DNA of 64,000 nt from an uncultured Candidatus Bathyarchaeia archaeon (lineage in GTDB: Archaea; Thermoproteota; Bathyarchaeia; Bathyarchaeales; Bathycorpusculaceae). The translations under genes were made by a program, and so were the position numbers. Shown piece after piece: positions 41,187-58,433 of this stretch. The DNA is taken from NCBI GenBank assembly GCA_964535965.1, contig CAZHWZ010000005.1, positions 37 to 64,036 on the forward strand. Direction: 5' to 3'. Numbering within the stretch: position 1 is the first letter of the stretch; each line of letters opens with the position of its first letter. Below the pieces are notes generated by a model, which worked only from the letters and a program-made list of their open reading frames with translations, was not told the DNA's origin and ran no database searches.

Positions 41187-41244
41187 AAGAGAAAAATGGG
41201 GGAATGTAGGTGTTTTCTTTACGGGTCCATTTCGCCGTAGTGTA
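41187..41244. repeat. repeat copy A: shared 3' coding end plus 3' flank of the two dockerin genes
   Basis: Nearly identical to 46211..46267 (..gaaaaatgggggaatgta(g/c)gtgttttctttacgggtccatttcgccgtagtgta). Confidence 0.85.
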
Positions 41245-44200
41245 GGGCTGTCGTGTATATGTCTTCTATGTCTACTATTTTGTCACTGTTTATGTCCATG
41301 TTGGGGCTGTGGGGACATGCTCCGCATGGGGTTGGATGCATGTACTCGCCGTTGACGGGAACCGAGCCGTACGCCAATGAGATCAAGTATATGTCTTCAA
41401 TGTCAACTATGCCATCGGCGTTTACGTCGCCGATCAAGCCTACATAAACCCAACCATCAGCAAGCATATTATCTGCTGTGTGTGTTTCGCCTGAAACAGG
41501 CCAAGCGTAAGCCCATACGGTGTAGTTGCCCTTAACAAAGCCAGAAGTGTTCCAAGTGAAGGTGACAGCTTTGAAGGCTGCACTCGTCAATGCTACTGTT
41601 TCTGTTTCAATGACGTTTGAGTTGTAGTAGATGGTGATGTCGAGGGTTTCTGTCTGTCTGCCTTGATTTTCAACGATAACGCTGATGGATACGGAGTAGC
41701 CCTGTCCCACTACTGTTTTTGAAGGTTTAACACCAACGATGCTTACGTCATGAACCACCTGTTCTGGGTCGTGACCGAAGATGATTATTTCGGTTGGATC
41801 CAGGGCCTTTGGCTCTGCTGTAGTCGAATTGACTAATATCATGTTGGGATCGCCATAGAAAACGTAGGCGTTGCAGCAGTCGTCAACATATGGGTAAGCA
41901 TACCACGGAAACTCGTTACCTGGAGTGACCGTGTAATTGTAGACCCATACGCGACTGAAGAGGGTCATCTCAAAGTAGGTTTTGGGGTAAACGTATCCTG
42001 TCTTAGTTACCGCTGTCACGAAGGCTTCGCCCAGCGTCATGCCTACCATGACCTCCTGCGTATACTTGACGCAGAACCAGTCCGTATCTATGAGCAAACC
42101 TGTCCTCATGTCTCCGATAGCCGATGCTGCGCCGTGCCTCATCATAGTTAGTGGTAACAATGAACCCCCGACGTAGCAGTCCATGAAGACTATGTTTATT
42201 GAGTGGATGTTGCCGAGCCATCGGTCAAATTCTCCACCATATGCGAAGCTGAAGGGCTCCCCCAATCTTTGGTAGACTGCCCCGTCTGGATATGGATAGC
42301 CGTCGAGGTTGTATTGGTCTGGAATCGACGCATTCTCGGCGTATGTGGTCATGTTATACTCGTATCCGCGTTTCGGCTGCAGGTCTGGTGGATCCTCGTA
42401 CCAGAGACCGACTCCACCTTGCCCAAAGGGCAGGTAGTCCCAGACAAAACCGAGTTCACCATGGTTTGAGTGGTACCAGAAGGCCACGCCGGAGTTTAGT
42501 ACGTTGAAGACTTCGTATTTACCGATGTGTGCCTCTACCGTGAAATTACGACTTTCCATAGCATTCGTCGTGTTGTCCCAGCCGTTAACGCTGTATACAT
42601 AACTTGGCGGAGCCTTATAGTCCGGTGGCTGTATAAGGTTAGGCGGGATGTCGCTGGGTATGTCCGGCATTCCGTAATCGTACGCTACGCATGTGGGCAT
42701 ACTGATGTTGTATCCAGGGTTGGCGTAGATTATGGCTGGGTATAGCAGGGCCCTGCTAACGAAGGCGACATCTTCTTCTGCGTTTTCTCCCGGAATTCTT
42801 CCAGCTTTAGCGATGCCTTCGATTGCCCTCTCAAACACTGGCTTAACATCTACGAGAGGCGCAACCGTCAGCACGCTTTCCATGCCGGGAGCGTCGGCGC
42901 CTAGGCTTCCAATCCACTCGGACCATTCTTTTGACAATTCATGCATCCAGTGGATGGGTGGGGCCTTGAGCAGCCAGTCTAAAGGACTTATTCCGCCCCA
43001 CTCGTGAGCAAAGTATTGATATGCCCAAGTGGAGTCTGCGAGTGTTGGAATCTGCTTTGCGTTGCCTTTGAAAATAAGTATAGGAGCGCCGTGAAATGCT
43101 CCGGCTAGCGCGGCTGGAGCGAAGAAGTTGTCCGTCGGTACAGTTAAGATTATGTCCGTTTCTCCACTGAGACCTCTTATGTAGGATACGACGTCCTCTA
43201 AGCTTAGCAGGTCTTGGGTGATCGTGATGCCCATGTCCGTAATCTGGCTCTTAACACTGCTGGAGATTATTCCGGCAGGGTCAACGATGATCACTTCCTC
43301 AACTCCGAGGATTTGAAGGGTTTCTCTTGTTTCGTGTAGCAGGGCATCGGTTGCGGTGAAGAGAAGTGGGGCATTTAACAGGGATGCAATGACTGCCCCA
43401 TTGGCTGCGGCTTCGACATAGTTAAGCTTTGTTTCGTTGTATAATGGGATTTCGTATTGAACCGTGTATTCGACGGGTTCATTCGGTGGATACTGTCCAA
43501 GGAGTGCTGCTTCCGCGATTAGGGTCCAGTTTCCAGGCGTTGGGTAAAGGGTGTTAAGGTGACCTATGCTGGATACGTATAATGGCGACGGTGGGTACTC
43601 AGTATATTCGGATTCAAAGTAGTTGGGGAAGAGGATGTTGCCTTCTGGGTCTATCAGCCACATGGACACCCAACTCATTCTCTTTTGAGTGCTGTTGCAT
43701 GAAAGCCAAGCGTCGAGTTCCTGAGCGTTTTCAGGCACGGTTATTGTATACGCATCGAGGTTCCCTGGCTTGCGTGAGAAGCCATACGCGAGTCCTCCTA
43801 TAACCAAGCCATAGTCAACTCCACCCTCGAATCCCATGCAGTAAATCGCCACCGTATAGCTTTCTGGGGTGGTTCTTGGGCGCTCGTTGACGCCCCACAT
43901 CATCCATGTATAACCGCCTGTAGCGGGTGTGAAGTCGTAGTCGACAACGTTTCCATCTGGGTCTATGAGGAAGCACGCTAGCCACGTTTCTCCGACGGCT
44001 GTGGTCCAGTTGAGCAGCTGAACTTGTGTTATCATGATGCCTGTGATGTTGGCTGGTATGGTAAAGTTCAGCCACTCTCCTCTATGAATCACGGGTTCTG
44101 GTAGAGTTGCGTTCCATATGTAGGCATCGGCGATGAAGCCCCAGTAGGTTCCTATGCGGTCGGTTGTTAGACGAATGTGGACTACGTCGCCGGGAACAAT

Positions 44201-45685
44201 GGGTGTCCATACATCCTCGTAGTATCCATTGTAAGATGTTATCAGCTTCCAGTCCCTGTCATAGATGTACAAGTAGTCGTATCCAGGTTCTAGATCAATT
44301 TTTGGGAAGTGGACACTGATGCTTACTGCTCCTAAATGAGCCACATCGTACGTCACGTTCATATTGTTTTCATATGGGTGTGGCGACTCGATAGGGGGTT
44401 CGATGGTCGCATACTGTCCAGATGGAGGGCCGCTAATGCGGAACGGGTAACTGATGTAGTACTCTTGCGTTACGTTGAAGAATTCGCCGCGAAATTCGCC
44501 GTACGTGACTGCTGGTGTTGGGAAGTACGTCTTCGCTGGCGTTATTACCGCGGAACTTGAGTTTATCCATTCCCGGAGGGCGATCTCTTTCCCGTACTTG
44601 TATGGGTCGTTAACCATGATGGACGTGTAGTTGTCGGTTCCGAGGTAGCCTTTCATGTATGACATGTAATCGTTGCTGTATGGACCTATGAAGTCTGTGT
44701 AGCTGACTCCTCCCCAGTGGTCGCAGTAGGTCTTCCAGTCTTCGAGGAGGTAGTTGCCAGCCATGGACTCGCCGTATATGATTGGTGCCATGTAGAGGTT
44801 TCCAATCTCGTCTCTGAATACGTTTGCTGGCACGGACGCAAGGAAAGCATATTCGTCAAGGTAGGATGTGGGGTCGGAGTAGACGAATGTGCATCGCCTA
44901 AAAGGAACACGTTTCGGCACTAGCGCGCTAACACTGCCATGTTGCAGATTTGCCGAAATTTCATTTTTGGTGTTCGTTACCCCCCAATCTGGATCGCCGA
45001 TTATTTTGCGAAAATCGTTTGTGACGATGGCTATGTCAGTGATATTCACTGTGCTGTCGCTATTGACGTCTGTCGATGAATTGTAGGTGCCCCTAGCCCA
45101 ATCACGAAGGGTGAGGAAAACATCCAACATGTCTACTCTTAGATCATTGTCCACGTCAGACCATGGTCTGTACGGCGTAGTAGAGTACGGATCGTGACCT
45201 ATTAATGATACATTGACGAGCGTCAGCGGGCTGGTTCCATCACTGATGGGATTGAAGTTGACTGTTAATAACTTTACTACAGTGGCCGTCGCTGGCTGAC
45301 CGGGGCGTAACGCAGCCTCAAGGGCAGGTAGAGAAGTATTGGGCATATAGAAAAATCCTGCTTCACTAACGCTATCTAATACCGGAGGATTTCTTATAGT
45401 GGTAAGCCCTGTAAGGTTTGCGAAATCCCCCCACTCAAAGGATACATAATCTAAAACCAGGGGATTCCACTCTAAGCCCACTTGCCAAGCCCAGAGGTTT
45501 TGAACATTAGACACCATGATACTAACTGAGAATTGTGTATTCACCGATACTCTGATTGACGATGGGTAAATGTAAACTGCAGGATCATCCTGTGCTTTTA
45601 ATGGTTGAACGTTAAGTATCAACGTTAATATGCCTGTTAATAGCAGTGTTAGCATTATTCCCGTAACCGCTTTCCTATTTTCCAT
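41219..45685 (-). CDS. giant secreted multidomain protein: signal/TM, cohesin-like domain, internal dockerin, possible C25/clostripain-like Cys peptidase, CARDB-like domain, C-terminal dockerin
   Basis: Start placed at MENRKAVTGIMLTLLLTGILTL (ATG 45685). Cohesin-like SVNTQFSVSIMVSNVQNLWAWQVGLEWNPLVLDYV. Dockerin loops DVDNDLRVDMLDV, DVNSDSTVNITDI, DVNADGIVDIEDI and DINSDKIVDIEDI. WYHSNHGELG and FMDCYVGGS may form a His/Cys dyad. CARDB-like VSISVIVENQGRQTETLDITIYYN. Confidence 0.6.
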   Translation of the reverse strand: MENRKAVTGIMLTLLLTGILTLILNVQPLKAQDDPAVYIYPSSIRVSVNTQFSVSIMVSNVQNLWAWQVGLEWNPLVLDYVSFEWGDFANLTGLTTIRNPPVLDSVSEAGFFYMPNTSLPALEAALRPGQPATATVVKLLTVNFNPISDGTSPLTLVNVSLIGHDPYSTTPYRPWSDVDNDLRVDMLDVFLTLRDWARGTYNSSTDVNSDSTVNITDIAIVTNDFRKIIGDPDWGVTNTKNEISANLQHGSVSALVPKRVPFRRCTFVYSDPTSYLDEYAFLASVPANVFRDEIGNLYMAPIIYGESMAGNYLLEDWKTYCDHWGGVSYTDFIGPYSNDYMSYMKGYLGTDNYTSIMVNDPYKYGKEIALREWINSSSAVITPAKTYFPTPAVTYGEFRGEFFNVTQEYYISYPFRISGPPSGQYATIEPPIESPHPYENNMNVTYDVAHLGAVSISVHFPKIDLEPGYDYLYIYDRDWKLITSYNGYYEDVWTPIVPGDVVHIRLTTDRIGTYWGFIADAYIWNATLPEPVIHRGEWLNFTIPANITGIMITQVQLLNWTTAVGETWLACFLIDPDGNVVDYDFTPATGGYTWMMWGVNERPRTTPESYTVAIYCMGFEGGVDYGLVIGGLAYGFSRKPGNLDAYTITVPENAQELDAWLSCNSTQKRMSWVSMWLIDPEGNILFPNYFESEYTEYPPSPLYVSSIGHLNTLYPTPGNWTLIAEAALLGQYPPNEPVEYTVQYEIPLYNETKLNYVEAAANGAVIASLLNAPLLFTATDALLHETRETLQILGVEEVIIVDPAGIISSSVKSQITDMGITITQDLLSLEDVVSYIRGLSGETDIILTVPTDNFFAPAALAGAFHGAPILIFKGNAKQIPTLADSTWAYQYFAHEWGGISPLDWLLKAPPIHWMHELSKEWSEWIGSLGADAPGMESVLTVAPLVDVKPVFERAIEGIAKAGRIPGENAEEDVAFVSRALLYPAIIYANPGYNISMPTCVAYDYGMPDIPSDIPPNLIQPPDYKAPPSYVYSVNGWDNTTNAMESRNFTVEAHIGKYEVFNVLNSGVAFWYHSNHGELGFVWDYLPFGQGGVGLWYEDPPDLQPKRGYEYNMTTYAENASIPDQYNLDGYPYPDGAVYQRLGEPFSFAYGGEFDRWLGNIHSINIVFMDCYVGGSLLPLTMMRHGAASAIGDMRTGLLIDTDWFCVKYTQEVMVGMTLGEAFVTAVTKTGYVYPKTYFEMTLFSRVWVYNYTVTPGNEFPWYAYPYVDDCCNAYVFYGDPNMILVNSTTAEPKALDPTEIIIFGHDPEQVVHDVSIVGVKPSKTVVGQGYSVSISVIVENQGRQTETLDITIYYNSNVIETETVALTSAAFKAVTFTWNTSGFVKGNYTVWAYAWPVSGETHTADNMLADGWVYVGLIGDVNADGIVDIEDIYLISLAYGSVPVNGEYMHPTPCGACPHSPNMDINSDKIVDIEDIYTTALHYGEMDP

Positions 45686-45845
45686 CCTCTTTTCCTTCTT
45701 TCCCCTCTTTCCCCTCTTTACATTTAATGAAAGAGGTCGTAAGCCATCAGACAATACAGCTCATTGGCTTCTCAGACGCTCTCAGCAGAAGCCATTTAGG
45801 CTACAATGAAACAAGCCTCTCCCTTGCTAAAACATCCAAATAGTT

Positions 45846-46210: not shown

Positions 46211-46267
46211 AAGAAAAAATGGGGGAATGTACGTGTTTTCTTTACGGGTCCATTTCGCCGTAGTGTA
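46211..46267. repeat. repeat copy B of the shared 3' end and flank
   Basis: See 41187..41244. Confidence 0.85.
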
Positions 46268-49178
46268 TGGACCTTAAGTACAGGTCTTCTATATCGAGTA
46301 TGCCATCGACACCGCCGATTATGCCATTGCAGTTTACGTCTAGGTTAGGGTTGTGGGGACATGTTTCGCATGGGATTGGATGCCAGTACTGGCAATACCT
46401 TGGATCCATTTTGTTTGTGATGTGGACTGAACCATAGGCCAATCCGACAAGATATATGTCTTCTATGTCTATTATGCCGTCATCGTTTGCGTCCAAGACG
46501 ACGAAAGATTCTTTCCCACCTGGTTTTGGCCATCCAAACTTAAGAGCAATATCATAAATGTCCTCCAAGCCAACGAAGTAGTCACCGGTGATGTCAGCGA
46601 TAGAGTTCCATTTTGGGTGGCCTGGATAGGAAGAAAATGCCGTTACTGCAATTATTATATCAATCGGCTTGACTTTGCAATCAGGGGCATGTATCTGTCG
46701 AGGATCGTGCCATATGTCATAATAAGCACCAGCAATGTCTTCTCTAATGGTTATCCAAAAGTCGAAAGTGTAATTTATCCATTGACATACCCACGGGTTG
46801 GGCAGGATTGTCGTGCCGCCTTCTTTGGTGACTTCGACTGTTTCTGGGCCTATTATGTGGACGGCTACTTTAATCTGATGATGGCACGTAGGCGGATGTA
46901 ACCAGAAGTATTCTTCGTATGGCACACAATACGGCAAGTCTACTATTGTGTCAGCAAGTAGTTCTTCTGTCCCATCTGGATGTATGAGCCAGACGTATTT
47001 ATGCGCCGTTAGGAGACCTGTTGCAGGGGCGTCTGCACTGTTGGGTATCGGATTAACCCATTCATTATGCAATGTTACCTTTACCGAAAATTCAGTGCAA
47101 GGCGGAACTTTCTGTGCGAATTGGTATTCTGGCGGGTCTGAGATGTGCACATTCACGTGGATTGGGCACCACCGGAAGTATCCATAGGGTGAGTGGATAA
47201 GAACGCTGCCCGGCAGGTTTGTTTGTACTGTGCTGCATGGTTTGTTGGCCACTAATAGAATGTAACCAATTACGTCATCGTAGACGGCTAACCTCCATGG
47301 ACCGCAACCAACTAGATTTGGATCGGGAGCAAAACCTGTTGGGTCTCCAGTTTCAACTATGGGCTTCCAAATATGCTTCGGCAGTATCTTTAACTCGCCT
47401 ATCCAGTGTAAACCCCACATTGTTGCATTTACGTCAAAGAGAACTTCTATGTTGCATGGATCTCTAATGTCGCAACTCTTGACAAATTTTACCTTCTGAT
47501 GCCACCAAGGTGGCGGGAGGCCCCTTGCAGCCAGTATCCTTGGGAGCTCTTCGATTGTGAATTTCACGTCTGCGGCTGAGAACGGAGTGCCGTCTTGCCA
47601 TGTTACATCTGTACGCAGAGTTAACCTTACTTTTGTTTTCTCTACGCCGTCTTCTGGGTCAGTCCAAGTTCCAACCGTCCAATTTTTCGCTATCCATGGT
47701 GTTTCTTCCAGCGTGTATGGGTCTTCTTTGAGTAGGGTGTCGTAGATTTTGTTCAGGACTTCCCATTCCCAGTAGTCATGGGCGTAAATTGGGTTCAGTG
47801 ACCATAATGAGGGAGTAGAGAACCCGTATCGGATAGTCATGTGCTGGCAGTCTCCCATAAGGTGGCCTTCTGGATAGGCGTTGAGGAACGTCCACCAGCT
47901 GTTTATTCCCTTGGCGCCTCCGCAACTACACTTGGCCCAGTATCCGTTCACGAAGCCCTTCCAATCTTGACCATAATACTGCATTTCTTCTGGGGTGTGT
48001 CCAGAGTAGTATCTCTTCATGGCCTTGATCCCAACTCTGCATTCTATTGGTATCGATCCGATTTTGCACGGGGTTGCGTAAATCTGTTGGCACATGTGCG
48101 TTGCATTTACTGCGCCGGCAAGATCGGTTGCAAATTTGAGTTGTTCCGCCCAGTAGTCGTATTCTGTATCGTTGAAGAATATGTAGTTGGGGCATATGCC
48201 AGGATGCCAGTACATCTGGCTGTGCTTCATCTCATAGAGGTAGTCGGGATCTTTCCTAAGGTTTCGGTCTCCGGTAAACAGGTGAAAATCTTTGTTAACC
48301 ATCACTGTGTTGATACATGCCATGCGACTCATGAAAATTGCGTTAACACGTATATTGATAGGGTCGCTTTGAAGCTGCATCCAGATCCATTGACCGATAC
48401 GCTCCTTTTTAATATCATCACCGTTGATGATGAACTTGAGTTCGAACTCTTCACCGGATTGATAGTGTCCATCTTTCGGCTGTCCACTTCCCGGCTTACC
48501 GTCCCAGAACCTCCAAGGGTACCCTCCTGGGATGTATAAGAAGCCATCCTCTGTTAGCAATTTGTCTGCCTCTGTTGTGTTAAATGGATGTGACAAGTCT
48601 TCCCAAGGGTATATTCCACCGGGGTATATGCGAGGATGCTTGTATAGGCCCAAGCACGGCGGAACCTCCGTATATATGGGAATGCCAAGTCCTTCATCGA
48701 TAACTTCTATAATATATGTTCTGTTGATGAGATGCGCAATCGCATGCCGGAAGCTGGATATGCTGCATGGGTTAGGATAGACAGGGTTTGGGTAGAGTGG
48801 ATTAGGCGGGTTGCCTAGAAACGGGTTTGGGTTGTTGTTCATCTCAAGCACTATCTCGTCAAAGTCGCAACCATAATCAACCAACTTGATGGATTCGTTG
48901 TAAGGAGGCATACTCCATTTATCAACGTATTGCTTTGTTAATGGCCAATCCATAACGTCTATTTCGCAATTTTCCATACCCATACATTCAGCATCTAGCC
49001 TAGAGTACATATAGATCATTAGTCTGTCACACCTTGGGCCAAACTTTTCATACCTTGTATCCTCTGTACAATCGGGATAAACCCAAGAACTCACGGGAAT
49101 AGCATAGAAAACGCTAAGTATCAATAAAGCCATAGAGCCAAATGCTATAATGCCTTTTTTGCTATACATTTTCCTCAA
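46242..49178 (-). CDS. secreted solute-binding-protein family 5-like (DppA/OppA fold) protein with C-terminal dockerin repeats
   Basis: N-terminal signal/TM GIIAFGSMALLILSVFYAI. SBP_5-like VRLTLRTDVTWQDGTPFSAADVKFTIEE and FRHAIAHLINRTYIIEVI. Dockerin loops DANDDGIIDIEDI and GILDIEDLY. The C-terminus ..HYGEMDP is identical to the neighbouring gene. The start may be the ATG at 49169. Confidence 0.55.
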   Translation of the reverse strand: MRKMYSKKGIIAFGSMALLILSVFYAIPVSSWVYPDCTEDTRYEKFGPRCDRLMIYMYSRLDAECMGMENCEIDVMDWPLTKQYVDKWSMPPYNESIKLVDYGCDFDEIVLEMNNNPNPFLGNPPNPLYPNPVYPNPCSISSFRHAIAHLINRTYIIEVIDEGLGIPIYTEVPPCLGLYKHPRIYPGGIYPWEDLSHPFNTTEADKLLTEDGFLYIPGGYPWRFWDGKPGSGQPKDGHYQSGEEFELKFIINGDDIKKERIGQWIWMQLQSDPINIRVNAIFMSRMACINTVMVNKDFHLFTGDRNLRKDPDYLYEMKHSQMYWHPGICPNYIFFNDTEYDYWAEQLKFATDLAGAVNATHMCQQIYATPCKIGSIPIECRVGIKAMKRYYSGHTPEEMQYYGQDWKGFVNGYWAKCSCGGAKGINSWWTFLNAYPEGHLMGDCQHMTIRYGFSTPSLWSLNPIYAHDYWEWEVLNKIYDTLLKEDPYTLEETPWIAKNWTVGTWTDPEDGVEKTKVRLTLRTDVTWQDGTPFSAADVKFTIEELPRILAARGLPPPWWHQKVKFVKSCDIRDPCNIEVLFDVNATMWGLHWIGELKILPKHIWKPIVETGDPTGFAPDPNLVGCGPWRLAVYDDVIGYILLVANKPCSTVQTNLPGSVLIHSPYGYFRWCPIHVNVHISDPPEYQFAQKVPPCTEFSVKVTLHNEWVNPIPNSADAPATGLLTAHKYVWLIHPDGTEELLADTIVDLPYCVPYEEYFWLHPPTCHHQIKVAVHIIGPETVEVTKEGGTTILPNPWVCQWINYTFDFWITIREDIAGAYYDIWHDPRQIHAPDCKVKPIDIIIAVTAFSSYPGHPKWNSIADITGDYFVGLEDIYDIALKFGWPKPGGKESFVVLDANDDGIIDIEDIYLVGLAYGSVHITNKMDPRYCQYWHPIPCETCPHNPNLDVNCNGIIGGVDGILDIEDLYLRSIHYGEMDP

Positions 49179-49233: not shown

Positions 49234-49512
49234 TCATCGGCTTCTCAGATGCTCTCAGCAGAAGCCATTTAGGTTACAATGAAACAAGCCTCTCCCTTGC
49301 TAAAACATCCAAATAGTTCTATTTAAAATTTCTGAAACTTTGTTTCAGTCGCAACAAGCCTTCACATCTTCAATATTTCACATACTTTTACTCCAAATGC
49401 ACAGGCTCGGAGAAGGCAAAAGTTCCGCTCTAAGTCATGAATCTTTCAACAACTTCATATAGAATGCTGATTCCGAACACCAAGTTATCAATGGATATGC
49501 GCTCGTCTATGC
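49234..49512. repeat. repeat copy B of the promoter/leader segment (its 3' part is the genuine M20 gene end)
   Basis: See 45761..46040. Confidence 0.85.
49319..49328 (-). promoter_or_regulatory. candidate TATA box for the SBP-dockerin gene
   Basis: Identical to 45846..45855, within the duplicated segment. Confidence 0.4.
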
Positions 49513-50800
49513 CGTGAATAGTTTTCAAAATTTCGCCGTAGGGCATGTCCGCACGCACTGGCTGAAAACCGTAGCACGTGCTGCCTATTTTTCTGAAGAA
49601 GCGAGAGTCGGTTCCTCCAGTAAGCAGTATTGGCGCCACAGCGCAGTTGGGTTCAAACTCTTTCAAAACCGTGACAATGTGCTCATAAAGCGGCGTGTTT
49701 GCTGGAGATTCAGACGGCTCATTGGCTTGAACCATCTCAAAATCTAACTTTTCCAAGTTAACATCCTTTAGCAAGGCTTTAACTTCATCCATGGCTTGCG
49801 CCGGAGTTTGTCCAGGCAGGACTCTGCAGTCGAAAACGGCTTCGCATTCTGATGGAATTATATTTTCCTTTACACCCCCATGAATTATCGTAGGCGTAAT
49901 GGTCATTCTGAGCATTGCCCGAAATTCCTCAGCCATGGCCCTGTCTTTCTGGGCTAACATGTCTAATATTTGGTCGCCCATTGCCGGATTTTGAAGCAAC
50001 ATCGACAAGGCTTGTTTTATAGTTTCGTTTCCCTTTGCAACTTCGCTAAACAACTGTTTTACAGTCGGCACAAGCAAAATTTTCGAACGGTAATTTCCGA
50101 GTTTTTCAACAACCTTGTTCATGCGCAGTATGGCGTTGTCTGCTAAGCCAGGCACGGACCCATGTCCAGGCGTGCCTTTCGCTTTAACTTTAAACCATAG
50201 AATTCCTTTCTCTGTAGTCTGAATTGTGAAAATGTTTTTCCCGTTAACCGGAATTGCTAAGCCTCCGCCCTCGTTTATCACGTAGTCTGCTTGGATTTTT
50301 TCTGGATAATTGCGAACAAGGTAGCCTGCTCCTGCTTCTCCACCCTTCTCTTCGTCGGCTGTCGCAGCCAATATTACGTCGCCTTTAAGCTTTACATTGT
50401 TTCTTTTCAGAAGTTTCATAACCATAACTTCCATAGCAGTCATCGACTTCATGTCTAATGCGCCTCTTCCCCAAACAAAACCATCCTTAATTATGCCTTT
50501 GAAAGGATCTACGCCCCACTCTCCAGGGTTTGCAGCAACAACATCTAAATGGGATAGTAAAAGCATACTTGACTTTTCACCCGTTCCTTTAAGGCGTGTG
50601 ATGACACTGCCTCTTCCATGTGCGGACTCGAAAAGTTCGCATCTAAAGCCTTCTTTTTCCAAAATTTTAGCCAAGTATTTTGCTGCTTCTGTTTCGTTTC
50701 CGGGCGGGTTGGTTGTATTTATGCATATTAAATCTTTTAGAAGAGTTGTAATCTCTTCTTGGATTTCTTTTAATAATTGGGCACACATTCCATAGCTCAC
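49430..50800 (-). CDS. M20-family metallopeptidase (ArgE/DapE/CPG2-like)
   Basis: LLLSHLDVV, ADEEKGG and the dimerisation-domain layout fit the family. 456 aa. Confidence 0.8.
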   Translation of the reverse strand: MSYGMCAQLLKEIQEEITTLLKDLICINTTNPPGNETEAAKYLAKILEKEGFRCELFESAHGRGSVITRLKGTGEKSSMLLLSHLDVVAANPGEWGVDPFKGIIKDGFVWGRGALDMKSMTAMEVMVMKLLKRNNVKLKGDVILAATADEEKGGEAGAGYLVRNYPEKIQADYVINEGGGLAIPVNGKNIFTIQTTEKGILWFKVKAKGTPGHGSVPGLADNAILRMNKVVEKLGNYRSKILLVPTVKQLFSEVAKGNETIKQALSMLLQNPAMGDQILDMLAQKDRAMAEEFRAMLRMTITPTIIHGGVKENIIPSECEAVFDCRVLPGQTPAQAMDEVKALLKDVNLEKLDFEMVQANEPSESPANTPLYEHIVTVLKEFEPNCAVAPILLTGGTDSRFFRKIGSTCYGFQPVRADMPYGEILKTIHGIDERISIDNLVFGISILYEVVERFMT

Positions 50801-57281: not shown

Positions 57282-58433
57282 GTGAAGAATATGGGCGAAT
57301 TCCATGAGCGTTATGTAAAATTCTCATCAGCCCTTCTCATACTACTATTTGCAGCTGGATTAATTGCAGGAGGAATAGTCAGCTTCTACATAACTTTTCA
57401 GCAAATTAACAGCTTAAAAAACGAAGTTTCAAACCTTAAAAACCAAGTCTCCAAACTATGGGGCTTCCAAAACATTACTTACCAAAATATAACGATCTAT
57501 CAAAACATCACAGCCCTATCAGAAATATACGAAAATGTAAAGGATTCAGTCGTTTTGATTCGTGGAAAGACGACAAACGGAGGAACTGTTCAAGGTTCCG
57601 GATTCGTATATAGCTTCTCAGGAACAATGGTTGTGATAACGAATTACCACGTTGTTCACGCAACAACGAACATAAGCGTGACATTTTCAAACGGAAATGG
57701 ATACAACGCTACAATAAATGGAACAGACCCCTACGCAGATTTAGCCATACTCTCAATTGACGCCCCTCAAGTTGAATTCAAACCCCTTGAGATTGTAGGT
57801 TCCTCAGCATTAAGGGTAGGCGACCCTGTAATAGCCATTGGAAATCCATATGGCTTAGTTGGCTCAATGACCACTGGTGTAGTAAGCGCACTAGGAAGAA
57901 CAATTACTGAGGAATATACTGGGGGCTTCGCAATAGCTAACATAATACAAACAAGTACGCCTATAAACCCAGGAAATTCTGGCGGTCCATTACTAAATTA
58001 TTGTGGCAAAGTTGTTGGAATAACAACAGCCATAGTTGCCGATTCTCAAGGCTTAGGCTTCGCAATCCCATCAAACACTCTACTTAGGGAAATATGGTCG
58101 TTAATCGAATACGGCACTTATGAAGGTCACTCATACCTCGGTGTGAAGGGAACAGACATGTCTTATGAAACAGCTCAAAAGATGGGTGTAAATGTAACCT
58201 ATGGCTGGATTATTGCTGAAGTTATATCGGGAGGGCCTTCTGATAAGAAATTGAAAGTTAATGATATAATAATTGCAATGAATGGTACTTTCATCAGAAA
58301 TGGCGATGATTTGGCAAGCTATCTTGAAGAAAAAACCCAGCCCGGGGACAGCTTAATTTTGAGCGTTGTAAGGGCAAGCTCAACATCGGAAGTAGCAGTG
58401 ACTTTGGGTAGAAGACCTCCTCCGCCTGTATAG
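57282..58433 (+). CDS. HtrA/DegP-type serine protease with TM anchor and PDZ domain
   Basis: Catalytic His (ITNYHVV), Asp (DLAIL) and GNSGGPLLN, plus a C-terminal PDZ-like segment. Confidence 0.85.
   Translation: MKNMGEFHERYVKFSSALLILLFAAGLIAGGIVSFYITFQQINSLKNEVSNLKNQVSKLWGFQNITYQNITIYQNITALSEIYENVKDSVVLIRGKTTNGGTVQGSGFVYSFSGTMVVITNYHVVHATTNISVTFSNGNGYNATINGTDPYADLAILSIDAPQVEFKPLEIVGSSALRVGDPVIAIGNPYGLVGSMTTGVVSALGRTITEEYTGGFAIANIIQTSTPINPGNSGGPLLNYCGKVVGITTAIVADSQGLGFAIPSNTLLREIWSLIEYGTYEGHSYLGVKGTDMSYETAQKMGVNVTYGWIIAEVISGGPSDKKLKVNDIIIAMNGTFIRNGDDLASYLEEKTQPGDSLILSVVRASSTSEVAVTLGRRPPPPV

Follow-up and report, generated by a model that had tools for sequence, protein, structure and literature searches.

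The open reading frame (ORF) at 41219..45685 on the minus strand of the 64,000-nucleotide stretch analysed here (contig CAZHWZ010000005.1 of an uncultured Candidatus Bathyarchaeia archaeon, positions 37 to 64,036 of the forward strand, hereafter the window) probably encodes a secreted modular cysteine endopeptidase related to the gingipains, tethered together with a peptide-binding protein in a cohesin-dockerin assembly for harvesting extracellular protein. The identities of the modules, the conservation of a His-Cys dyad, the gingipain-like fold of the predicted peptidase unit and the recurrence of the layout in other proteins are established by the results below. The ORF is real, as an earlier reading of the letters (the original prediction) had claimed: it is intact, starts with ATG and encodes 1488 amino acids (aa) followed by a stop codon, and the gene calls on four metagenome contigs of Joint Genome Institute (JGI) sample 3300022551, up to 414,658 bp in length, include an identical protein. 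The longest version of the ORF would start from TTG at 45754 and add 23 residues; residue numbers given here start at MENRKAV, the ATG start.

41219..45685, minus strand: whole ORF, modular C25-like peptidase, predicted secreted (ORF call and identical metagenome proteins)

When the whole chain was scanned with Pfam, only sub-threshold matches were obtained; scanned one by one, the modules gave a clear picture. By this domain annotation, which the original prediction had proposed as a check, the modules were recognised either directly or via homologues, and all six parts that it had named hold up as domain calls.

A gingipain-like peptidase unit

The part of the protein with the predicted enzymatic role consists of two subdomains carrying the putative catalytic residues.

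42716..43450, minus strand: N-terminal alpha/beta subdomain of the C25-like unit, residues 746-990, with 'GRIP' at its end (profile and model)
41801..42715, minus strand: catalytic subdomain of the C25-like unit, residues 991-1295 (profiles, alignment, AlphaFold2 model and Foldseek)
42461..42463, minus strand: codon of the putative catalytic H1075, in 'FWYHSNHG' (invariant in 28 sequences; aligned to RgpB residue 211)
42176..42178, minus strand: codon of the putative catalytic C1170, in 'IVFMDCYVGG' (invariant in 28 sequences)

The body of the protein, residues 258-1300, is common to about a dozen metagenome proteins of Bathyarchaeota and Thermoproteota with 45-81% identity, and one locus with this C25-like body was found in 185,579 reference genomes. 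A profile of the close family (A2, residues 985-1300) gave zero matches among the PDB sequences. After an exhaustive search of 1.84 billion (1.84e9) representatives with a hidden Markov model (HMM), a total of 43 relatives were detected, the distant ones including proteins of Thorarchaeota, Odinarchaeia and Thermoplasmata. The distant relatives keep the body plan (N-terminal domain, alpha/beta region and catalytic region) with variable beta inserts. Pfam Peptidase_C25 was matched by 11 of 41 distant relatives at E <= 0.001 (best E = 1.6e-12), two Thorarchaeota relatives bear a precomputed PF01364 assignment, and the nearest relative, P0022, scored 19.0 against the cut-off of 23.

In an alignment of residues 745-1295 from 28 sequences with a mean column identity of about 25%, three columns alone show no variation, those of W1070, H1075 and C1170; conservation of G1076 reaches at least 90%. 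The possible His/Cys dyad that had been picked out in NHGELG and FMDCYVGG thus makes up two of the three invariant columns. Profile A6 matched gingipain R (1cvr, E = 4.3e-4), and in RgpB it aligned 'GRIP' with 'FIGRF', 'GDP' with 'FGDPSL' and the invariant His with residue 211, which lies in 'YTGHGS'. The catalytic His of RgpB is His211, reportedly so assigned by Eichinger et al. in 1999.

Structure prediction, also proposed as a check, gave a gingipain-like fold for the peptidase unit. The AlphaFold2 (AF2) model of residues 745-1295, for which the 28 divergent relatives served as the alignment, has a predicted local distance difference test score (pLDDT) of 81.3 and a predicted template modelling score (pTM) of 0.87, and is also confident over the N-terminal alpha/beta subdomain; an AlphaFold run on residues 740-1488 with 14 mostly close homologues gave a pLDDT of 34.4 and was discarded. 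In the model, one strand (E325-329) stands just before H331 (H1075) and another (E420-424) just before C426 (C1170). Searched against PDB with Foldseek, the model found Kgp or RgpB in all of the top five matches (E = 9e-8 to 9e-7, probability 1.0), the gingipains being aligned over about 490-520 columns. The lower matches, namely separase, CHAT proteases and PorU (E about 0.08), all belong to clan CD. The original prediction had likened this region to peptidases of the C25/clostripain type; the likeness to C25 stood, while that to clostripain (C11) was set aside, no C11 structure being present in the top 50 fold matches. Judged by profiles and model, residues about 746-1295 are a divergent relative of family C25 within clan CD, rather than a full member by the standard of the Pfam model. 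H1075 and C1170 are likely to form the catalytic dyad of this unit, which would then be active as a peptidase in the manner of the gingipains.

Two features inside the unit were observed in addition. An insertion of about 60 residues lies between His and Cys, and in the distant relatives it carries a conserved motif, 'PWR-x-YE...PD-x-(D/N)-x-DG-x-V-x-P' (for example NPDVDGDGIVNP). The motif, located at residues about 1100-1135 of the target (window about 42281..42388, minus strand), resembles a calcium loop of the form Dx[DN]xDG; the target's own subfamily has it in a degenerate version. The first 130 or so residues of the unit, residues about 766-880 (window about 43046..43390, minus strand), are CWB2-like: profile A6 matched the CWB2 domains of Cwp6, Cwp8 and SlpA of Clostridioides difficile, with E = 1.4e-7 for Cwp6, a hint that the N-terminal subdomain in this family of peptidases may be connected with CWB2.

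Cohesin and dockerin modules

One cohesin and two dockerins were assigned to the same chain.

45170..45592, minus strand: cohesin of the 'VSNVQNLWAWQ' type, residues 32-172 (homologues and profile)
44966..45169, minus strand: internal dockerin, residues 173-240, directly abutting the cohesin (Pfam Dockerin_1)
41222..41452, minus strand: C-terminal dockerin, residues 1412-1488, with an 11-residue linker insertion (hhalign to a dockerin profile)

The cohesin claimed in the original prediction was recognised through its homologues. A stretch of protein P0013 that is 44% identical to residues 27-260 of the target scores above the cut-off of Pfam Cohesin when taken alone (25.2 against 24.1), and the homologous cohesin domains that pass Pfam share 37-46% identity with the target. 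Metagenome relatives found by the motif 'VSNVQNLWAW' scored between 25.5 and 36 bits, with L008 at 25.5 bits and L009, L012, L013 and L016 at 31-36 bits. When a cohesin profile (A1) built from 3 sequences was compared with PDB, eight matches were obtained, all of them cohesins, the best being 3l8q (E = 4.7e-6). In the 185,579 reference genomes, zero relatives of this cohesin type were found.

The internal two-loop dockerin, likewise claimed, scored 34.0 bits with Pfam Dockerin_1 (PF00404; cut-off 22.9) when scanned alone and 21.5 bits within the whole chain. For the C-terminal dockerin, Pfam detected the first loop only, with 15.5 bits; this low score results from the 11-residue insertion in the linker between the two repeats. 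Compared by hhalign with the dockerin profile A9, the same segment gave a probability of 98.3% and E = 1.2e-14 with both repeats covered, bearing out this second dockerin as well. Profile A9, made from related C-terminal dockerins, itself matches the solved dockerins in PDB (E = 7e-16). The Ca2+ loops of the two dockerins are DVDNDLRVDMLD, DVNSDSTVNITD, DVNADGIVDIED and DINSDKIVDIED; all four are canonical 12-residue loops with D or N at positions 1, 3, 5, 9 and 12, each followed by a helix. The possibility that such Asp-rich loops are generic EF-hand or thrombospondin-type repeats, raised in the original prediction as what would speak against it, was ruled out, since the paired loops and helices specifically match dockerin profiles.

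The linker insertion of the C-terminal dockerin has the form HPxPCxxCPH ('HP-x-P-C-x-x-C-P-H-x-P-N') and stands between the dockerin repeats in the products of both adjacent genes of the window; related dockerins carry 'WNP' in its place. The insertion could be a zinc knuckle or could form a disulfide.

The cohesin and the internal dockerin together form a cassette with almost zero linker between the modules. A word-indexed homologue search with this cassette detected one protein, and a further search of the same kind detected nine. The cassette recurs in P0013, P0021 and L003-L008, its dockerin being of one type throughout and its 'DPDWG' tail conserved. Its carriers include proteins that resemble solute-binding proteins (SBPs; P0013 and L003-L006), the enzyme L008, and P0021, which has little beyond the cassette.

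An adjacent gene for a dockerin-bearing, predicted peptide-binding protein

Immediately upstream of the target, on the same strand, lies a gene for an OppA-type binding protein, followed further upstream by a peptidase gene.

46242..49178, minus strand: adjacent upstream gene, SBP_bac_5 (OppA-type) protein of 978 aa, predicted secreted, with C-terminal dockerin modules (Pfam)
46245..46511, minus strand: C-terminal dockerin of this neighbour, residues 890-978 (63% identical to the C-terminal dockerin of the target)
49430..50800, minus strand: M20 peptidase gene, immediately upstream on the same strand (Pfam Peptidase_M20 and M20_dimer)

The dockerins on an SBP-like neighbour, described in the original prediction, were found again: the protein matched Pfam SBP_bac_5 with 73 bits in addition to its dockerin modules. 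The two halves of the SBP domain are circularly permuted, residues about 100-312 corresponding to profile positions 194-353 and residues about 493-645 to profile positions 3-137. The cassette-bearing protein P0013 has the SBP_bac_5 halves in the same permuted order and is 32% identical to the neighbour over 650 aa.

The C-terminal dockerins of the neighbour and the target share the DIEDIY helices, the HPxPCxxCPH insertion and the HYGEMDP end. Given this identity and these common features, both proteins should dock to the same cohesin type. Within the window, dockerin loops are encoded by two genes only, and it is these two adjacent genes on the same strand that have a dockerin type in common. 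The second Ca2+ loop of the neighbour contains a 7-residue insert that looks like a duplication (DVNCNGIIGGVDGILDIED). The M20 peptidase may serve a later step of peptide use, the linkage being weak, and two amino-acid permease genes were also found within the window.

Homologues with related architectures

Comparison of the architectures showed two types of C-terminal end. P0004-P0009 and P0012 end with immunoglobulin-like (Ig) repeats, a transmembrane helix and a basic tail, while the target, P0002 and P0003 end with CARDB and a dockerin. The dockerin thus sits where the homologues have a membrane anchor, an argument for its being the tether between enzyme and cell and hence an alternative route of anchoring.

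The layout of the target is shared by L008 (180..2027, plus strand), a protein of 616 aa composed of a signal peptide, a cohesin, a dockerin, an enzyme domain, a beta domain and a dockerin; its enzyme is a papain-type Peptidase_C39_2 (56 bits). Cohesins of the target's type are also present in a group of small proteins of 206-424 aa (L009, L012-14 and L016), in each of which a signal peptide is followed by a single cohesin, a linker rich in Thr, Pro and Ser, and an anchor at the C-terminus. The anchor consists of a hydrophobic helix and a basic tail, with 'PEF' just ahead of it in several cases; NCBIfam gave sub-threshold matches only for the archaeal PEF-CTERM and Loki-CTERM sorting signals in these anchored cohesins. 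Another protein, L015, contains two cohesins and one dockerin.

In P0003 (L019, 1560..6158), a homologue 76% identical to the target, the cassette is replaced by an SBP_bac_5 fragment fused to the C25-like body. The fragment is 33% identical to the neighbour in the window (E = 6e-37), and by this match the fusion links the SBP and C25-like gene families. For the membrane-anchored homologues P0008 and P0007, a Peptidase_M50 gene was found directly upstream on the same strand (L017, 6646..7737, and L020, 1844..2971, respectively).

Proposed mode of action and alternative explanations

Based on the module composition, we can propose how the protein might work. In a Ca2+-dependent manner, the dockerins would engage cohesins, either those of the cell surface or those of partner proteins, by which the protease would be held at the cell envelope. 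The protease's own cohesin would serve as the socket for another dockerin-bearing protein, for which the OppA-like peptide-binding protein of the adjacent gene is the best candidate. Detrital proteins would then be cut beside the cell, and the peptides and amino acids would be captured and subsequently imported. Such a cellulosome-like scavenging of protein is plausible from the sequences. It fits with the 63%-identical dockerins of the adjacent genes, the anchor-bearing homologues, the similar layout around the C39-like enzyme and the small anchored cohesins. The catalytic activity, the dockerin-cohesin pairing and the nutritional role are inferences.

A number of results weigh against the tethered-peptidase reading. 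The target gave no match to Pfam PF01364 (Peptidase_C25), either whole or as a segment, and its cohesin segment (residues 32-172) gave no match to Pfam Cohesin (PF00963). The template modelling scores (TM-scores) to gingipains are modest, 0.36-0.47, and the spacing between His and Cys is about 95 aa as compared with 33 in RgpB. Neither an anchoring cohesin nor a multi-cohesin scaffoldin was found in the 64 kb window, and the anchored cohesins, which come from other metagenomes, are only 31-38% identical. The pairing of SBP with peptidase is not kept in the membrane-anchored homologues. The SBP gene has no Opp-type permease gene beside it, the only ABC (ATP-binding cassette) permease of the window being located about 16 kb off.

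The main alternative is that the N-terminal cohesin and its fused dockerin bind each other in cis, making a closed unit or latch, and that only the C-terminal dockerin tethers the protein. The near-linkerless cohesin, joined to one type of dockerin and to the 'DPDWG' tail in every cassette (the target, P0013, P0021 and L003-L008) would be accounted for in this way, as would the existence of free-standing anchored cohesins without dockerin and of a protein, P0021, that is little more than the cassette. The near-zero linker, however, may itself prevent the dockerin from folding back on the binding face of its own cohesin, and scaffoldins with both modules on one chain, such as the ScaB-type adaptors, are a known way of extending assemblies. 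We regard the latch as unlikely.

Still less probable is that the C25-like domain processes surface proteins or acts on them as a transpeptidase, maturing envelope proteins or attaching them. PorU, a C25-family member in the bacterial type IX secretion system (T9SS), would be the precedent and is among the weaker structural matches; the CWB2-like subdomain, of a cell-wall-binding type, and the M50 gene of the site-2 protease type adjoining the membrane-anchored homologues point in the same direction. The gingipains proper, however, match far better than PorU, the gene context in the window, with the SBP, the M20 peptidase and the permeases, is one of using peptides and amino acids, and the large modules of substrate-binding type (CUB and the beta modules) suit degradation. 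A role in adhesion or at the surface without any catalysis, with a caspase-fold pseudo-enzyme and Asp-rich loops that are generic calcium sites, is very improbable for this protein: the sub-threshold Pfam scores for C25 and cohesin and the many binding-type folds (CUB, CARDB, CWB2-like) would allow it, but His and Cys account for two of the three residues that stay invariant across very divergent relatives, and both dockerins match dockerin profiles specifically, with loops and helices paired.

If the reading as a tethered peptidase is extended beyond this locus, archaea of the Bathyarchaeia type could be building a surface cohesin-dockerin 'proteolysome', a dedicated harvester of detrital protein in sediments. 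We offer this wider proposal tentatively, as something short of probable. In such a system, small membrane-anchored cohesins would hold dockerin-tagged peptidases (C25-like and C39-like) and permuted OppA-like peptide binders. The mobile cohesin-dockerin cassette would be the adaptor letting the proteins stack, and the binding protein would capture the substrate, the role played by carbohydrate-binding modules (CBMs) in cellulosomes.

Comparison with known systems

The best structural matches of the target are the gingipains RgpB and Kgp of Porphyromonas gingivalis (MEROPS C25, clan CD). As in gingipains, the motifs are arranged in the order GR-x-P, His-Gly after a beta-strand, Cys after a beta-strand and GDP; a catalytic unit of two subdomains is followed by an Ig-like domain; and the protein is predicted to be secreted. 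In contrast to gingipains, the target is archaeal, shares only about 10% sequence identity with them and falls below the Pfam C25 threshold. Between His and Cys it has about 60 additional residues, which carry a conserved motif of their own, and its N-subdomain is CWB2-like. The C-terminal domain for T9SS and the haemagglutinin domains are lacking; instead, the target carries a cohesin, dockerins, CUB and a novel N-terminal domain.

The presence of cohesin and dockerin on one polypeptide is shared with the cellulosomal ScaB and ScaA of Acetivibrio cellulolyticus, and among PDB sequences it is the cohesins of ScaB that the target's cohesin profile matches best. ScaA carries an enzyme module on a cohesin-bearing chain. 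Unlike these proteins, the target is archaeal, has a single cohesin instead of a tandem array and a peptidase instead of a glycoside hydrolase, and is devoid of a CBM.

In Archaea, one protein of Archaeoglobus fulgidus bears cohesin and dockerin on a single chain. The description in the original prediction of archaeal cohesin-dockerin systems as only sparsely known was overstated, such proteins being documented in Archaeoglobus and extensively in anaerobic methanotrophic (ANME) archaea, in which OppA/NikA-type binding proteins commonly bear dockerins (PMC9012536). The target locus resembles these cases in the use of cohesins and dockerins outside cellulose degradation, and the dockerin-tagged SBP of the neighbour matches the OppA/NikA theme of ANME. 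It differs in the Bathyarchaeia-like lineage, in the peptidase cargo, in the circular permutation of the binding protein and in the fixed cohesin-dockerin cassette shuffled among enzymes and binding proteins.

For the bacterium Ca. Stygibacter of the Cloacimonadota, a cellulosome-like complex with dockerin-bearing C25 and S8 peptidases has been proposed (PMC8542988). As in the target, a gingipain-like C25 peptidase there has a C-terminal dockerin, and an extracellular polypeptide-degrading complex was inferred (PMC8542988). The Stygibacter system includes a giant multi-cohesin scaffoldin and its enzyme is without cohesin (PMC8542988), whereas no scaffoldin was found in the window and the target enzyme itself bears a cohesin. 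In sediments rich in Bathyarchaeota, C25 peptidases dominate the predicted exported peptidases (PMC6752024). Archaeal cohesin-dockerin proteins, exported C25 peptidases in such sediments and the proposal of a complex with dockerin-bearing C25 are thus already known. New are the unannotated archaeal branch of C25-like proteins, a cohesin borne by the protease itself, the cohesin-dockerin cassette as a mobile element of these proteins and the association with a binding protein whose halves are permuted.

In anoxic sediments, Bathyarchaeia and archaea related to them rank with the most abundant organisms, and they are thought to feed partly on detrital protein. For these organisms, the locus offers a branch of the gingipain family that is restricted to archaea and has lacked annotation, together with its putative catalytic residues. 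The cassette and the set of dockerins suggest a tethered assembly with a peptide-binding protein rather than free enzymes, and the locus supplies specific module pairs open to binding tests. If the reading is correct, the principle of the cellulosome would be extended to protein degradation by archaea, and new orthogonal cohesin-dockerin pairs would become available.

Accessory modules and other features

Except for the CWB2-like subdomain described above, the modules overlooked by the original prediction (an N-terminal body domain, CUB and two beta-modules) lie between the cassette and the peptidase unit. They are listed here with the two remaining parts of the chain.

45593..45685, minus strand: signal peptide or N-terminal anchor, residues 1-31, MENRKAVTGIMLTLLLTGILTLILNVQPLKA before Q (sequence reading)
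44411..44914, minus strand: conserved N-terminal body domain, residues 258-425 (kept in distant relatives, alignment A7)
44111..44398, minus strand: CUB domain, residues about 430-525, with an 'ESPHPY' motif (Pfam CUB)
43451..44098, minus strand: two beta-rich modules, residues 530-745 (variable or absent in distant relatives)
41471..41758, minus strand: CARDB/Ig-like domain, residues about 1310-1405 (Pfam, borderline)

The N-terminal signal or anchor helix claimed earlier was retained as a hydrophobic segment read from the sequence alone. The density of N-glycosylation sequons in the protein is 1.68 per 100 aa, as compared with 0.38 ± 0.40 in the other ORFs of the window (4.5 times), which fits with an exported and glycosylated archaeal protein; judging from these sites, the protein is probably N-glycosylated.

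The N-terminal body domain (residues 258-425) gave no Pfam match and had no relative among the PDB sequences. The CUB domain scored 26.4 bits against a cut-off of 21.4 when scanned alone, and CUB is common to the target and the archaeal S8 peptidases (subtilisins) P0014-16 and P0019. For the beta-rich residues 530-745, no significant match was obtained in Pfam or PDB. The claimed CARDB-like domain is borderline in the target (Pfam 22.4 against a cut-off of 22.7) and above the threshold in the orthologue P0003 (29.4); this region is 32% identical to the CARDB-plus-dockerin end of P0017, and its position is that of the Ig-like domain after the catalytic domain of gingipains.

Several minor features were observed at the nucleotide level and elsewhere in the window. 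A purine-rich repeated stretch, AAGAGGGGAAAGAGGGGAAAGAAGGAAAAGAGG, at 45686..45730 (minus strand) abuts the start codon on its upstream side and would encode a Lys/Arg/Gly-rich extension if TTG at 45754 were the start. The guanine-plus-cytosine (GC) content is 0.515 over the peptidase body (window 42001..44000), as compared with about 0.40-0.46 elsewhere in the window, which could reflect either a protein composition rich in Gly, Pro, Trp and Tyr or a foreign origin. The highest sequon density of the window, 2.09 per 100 aa with 8 sites, was found in an ORF of 383 aa at 57282..58433 on the plus strand, which may encode another surface protein.

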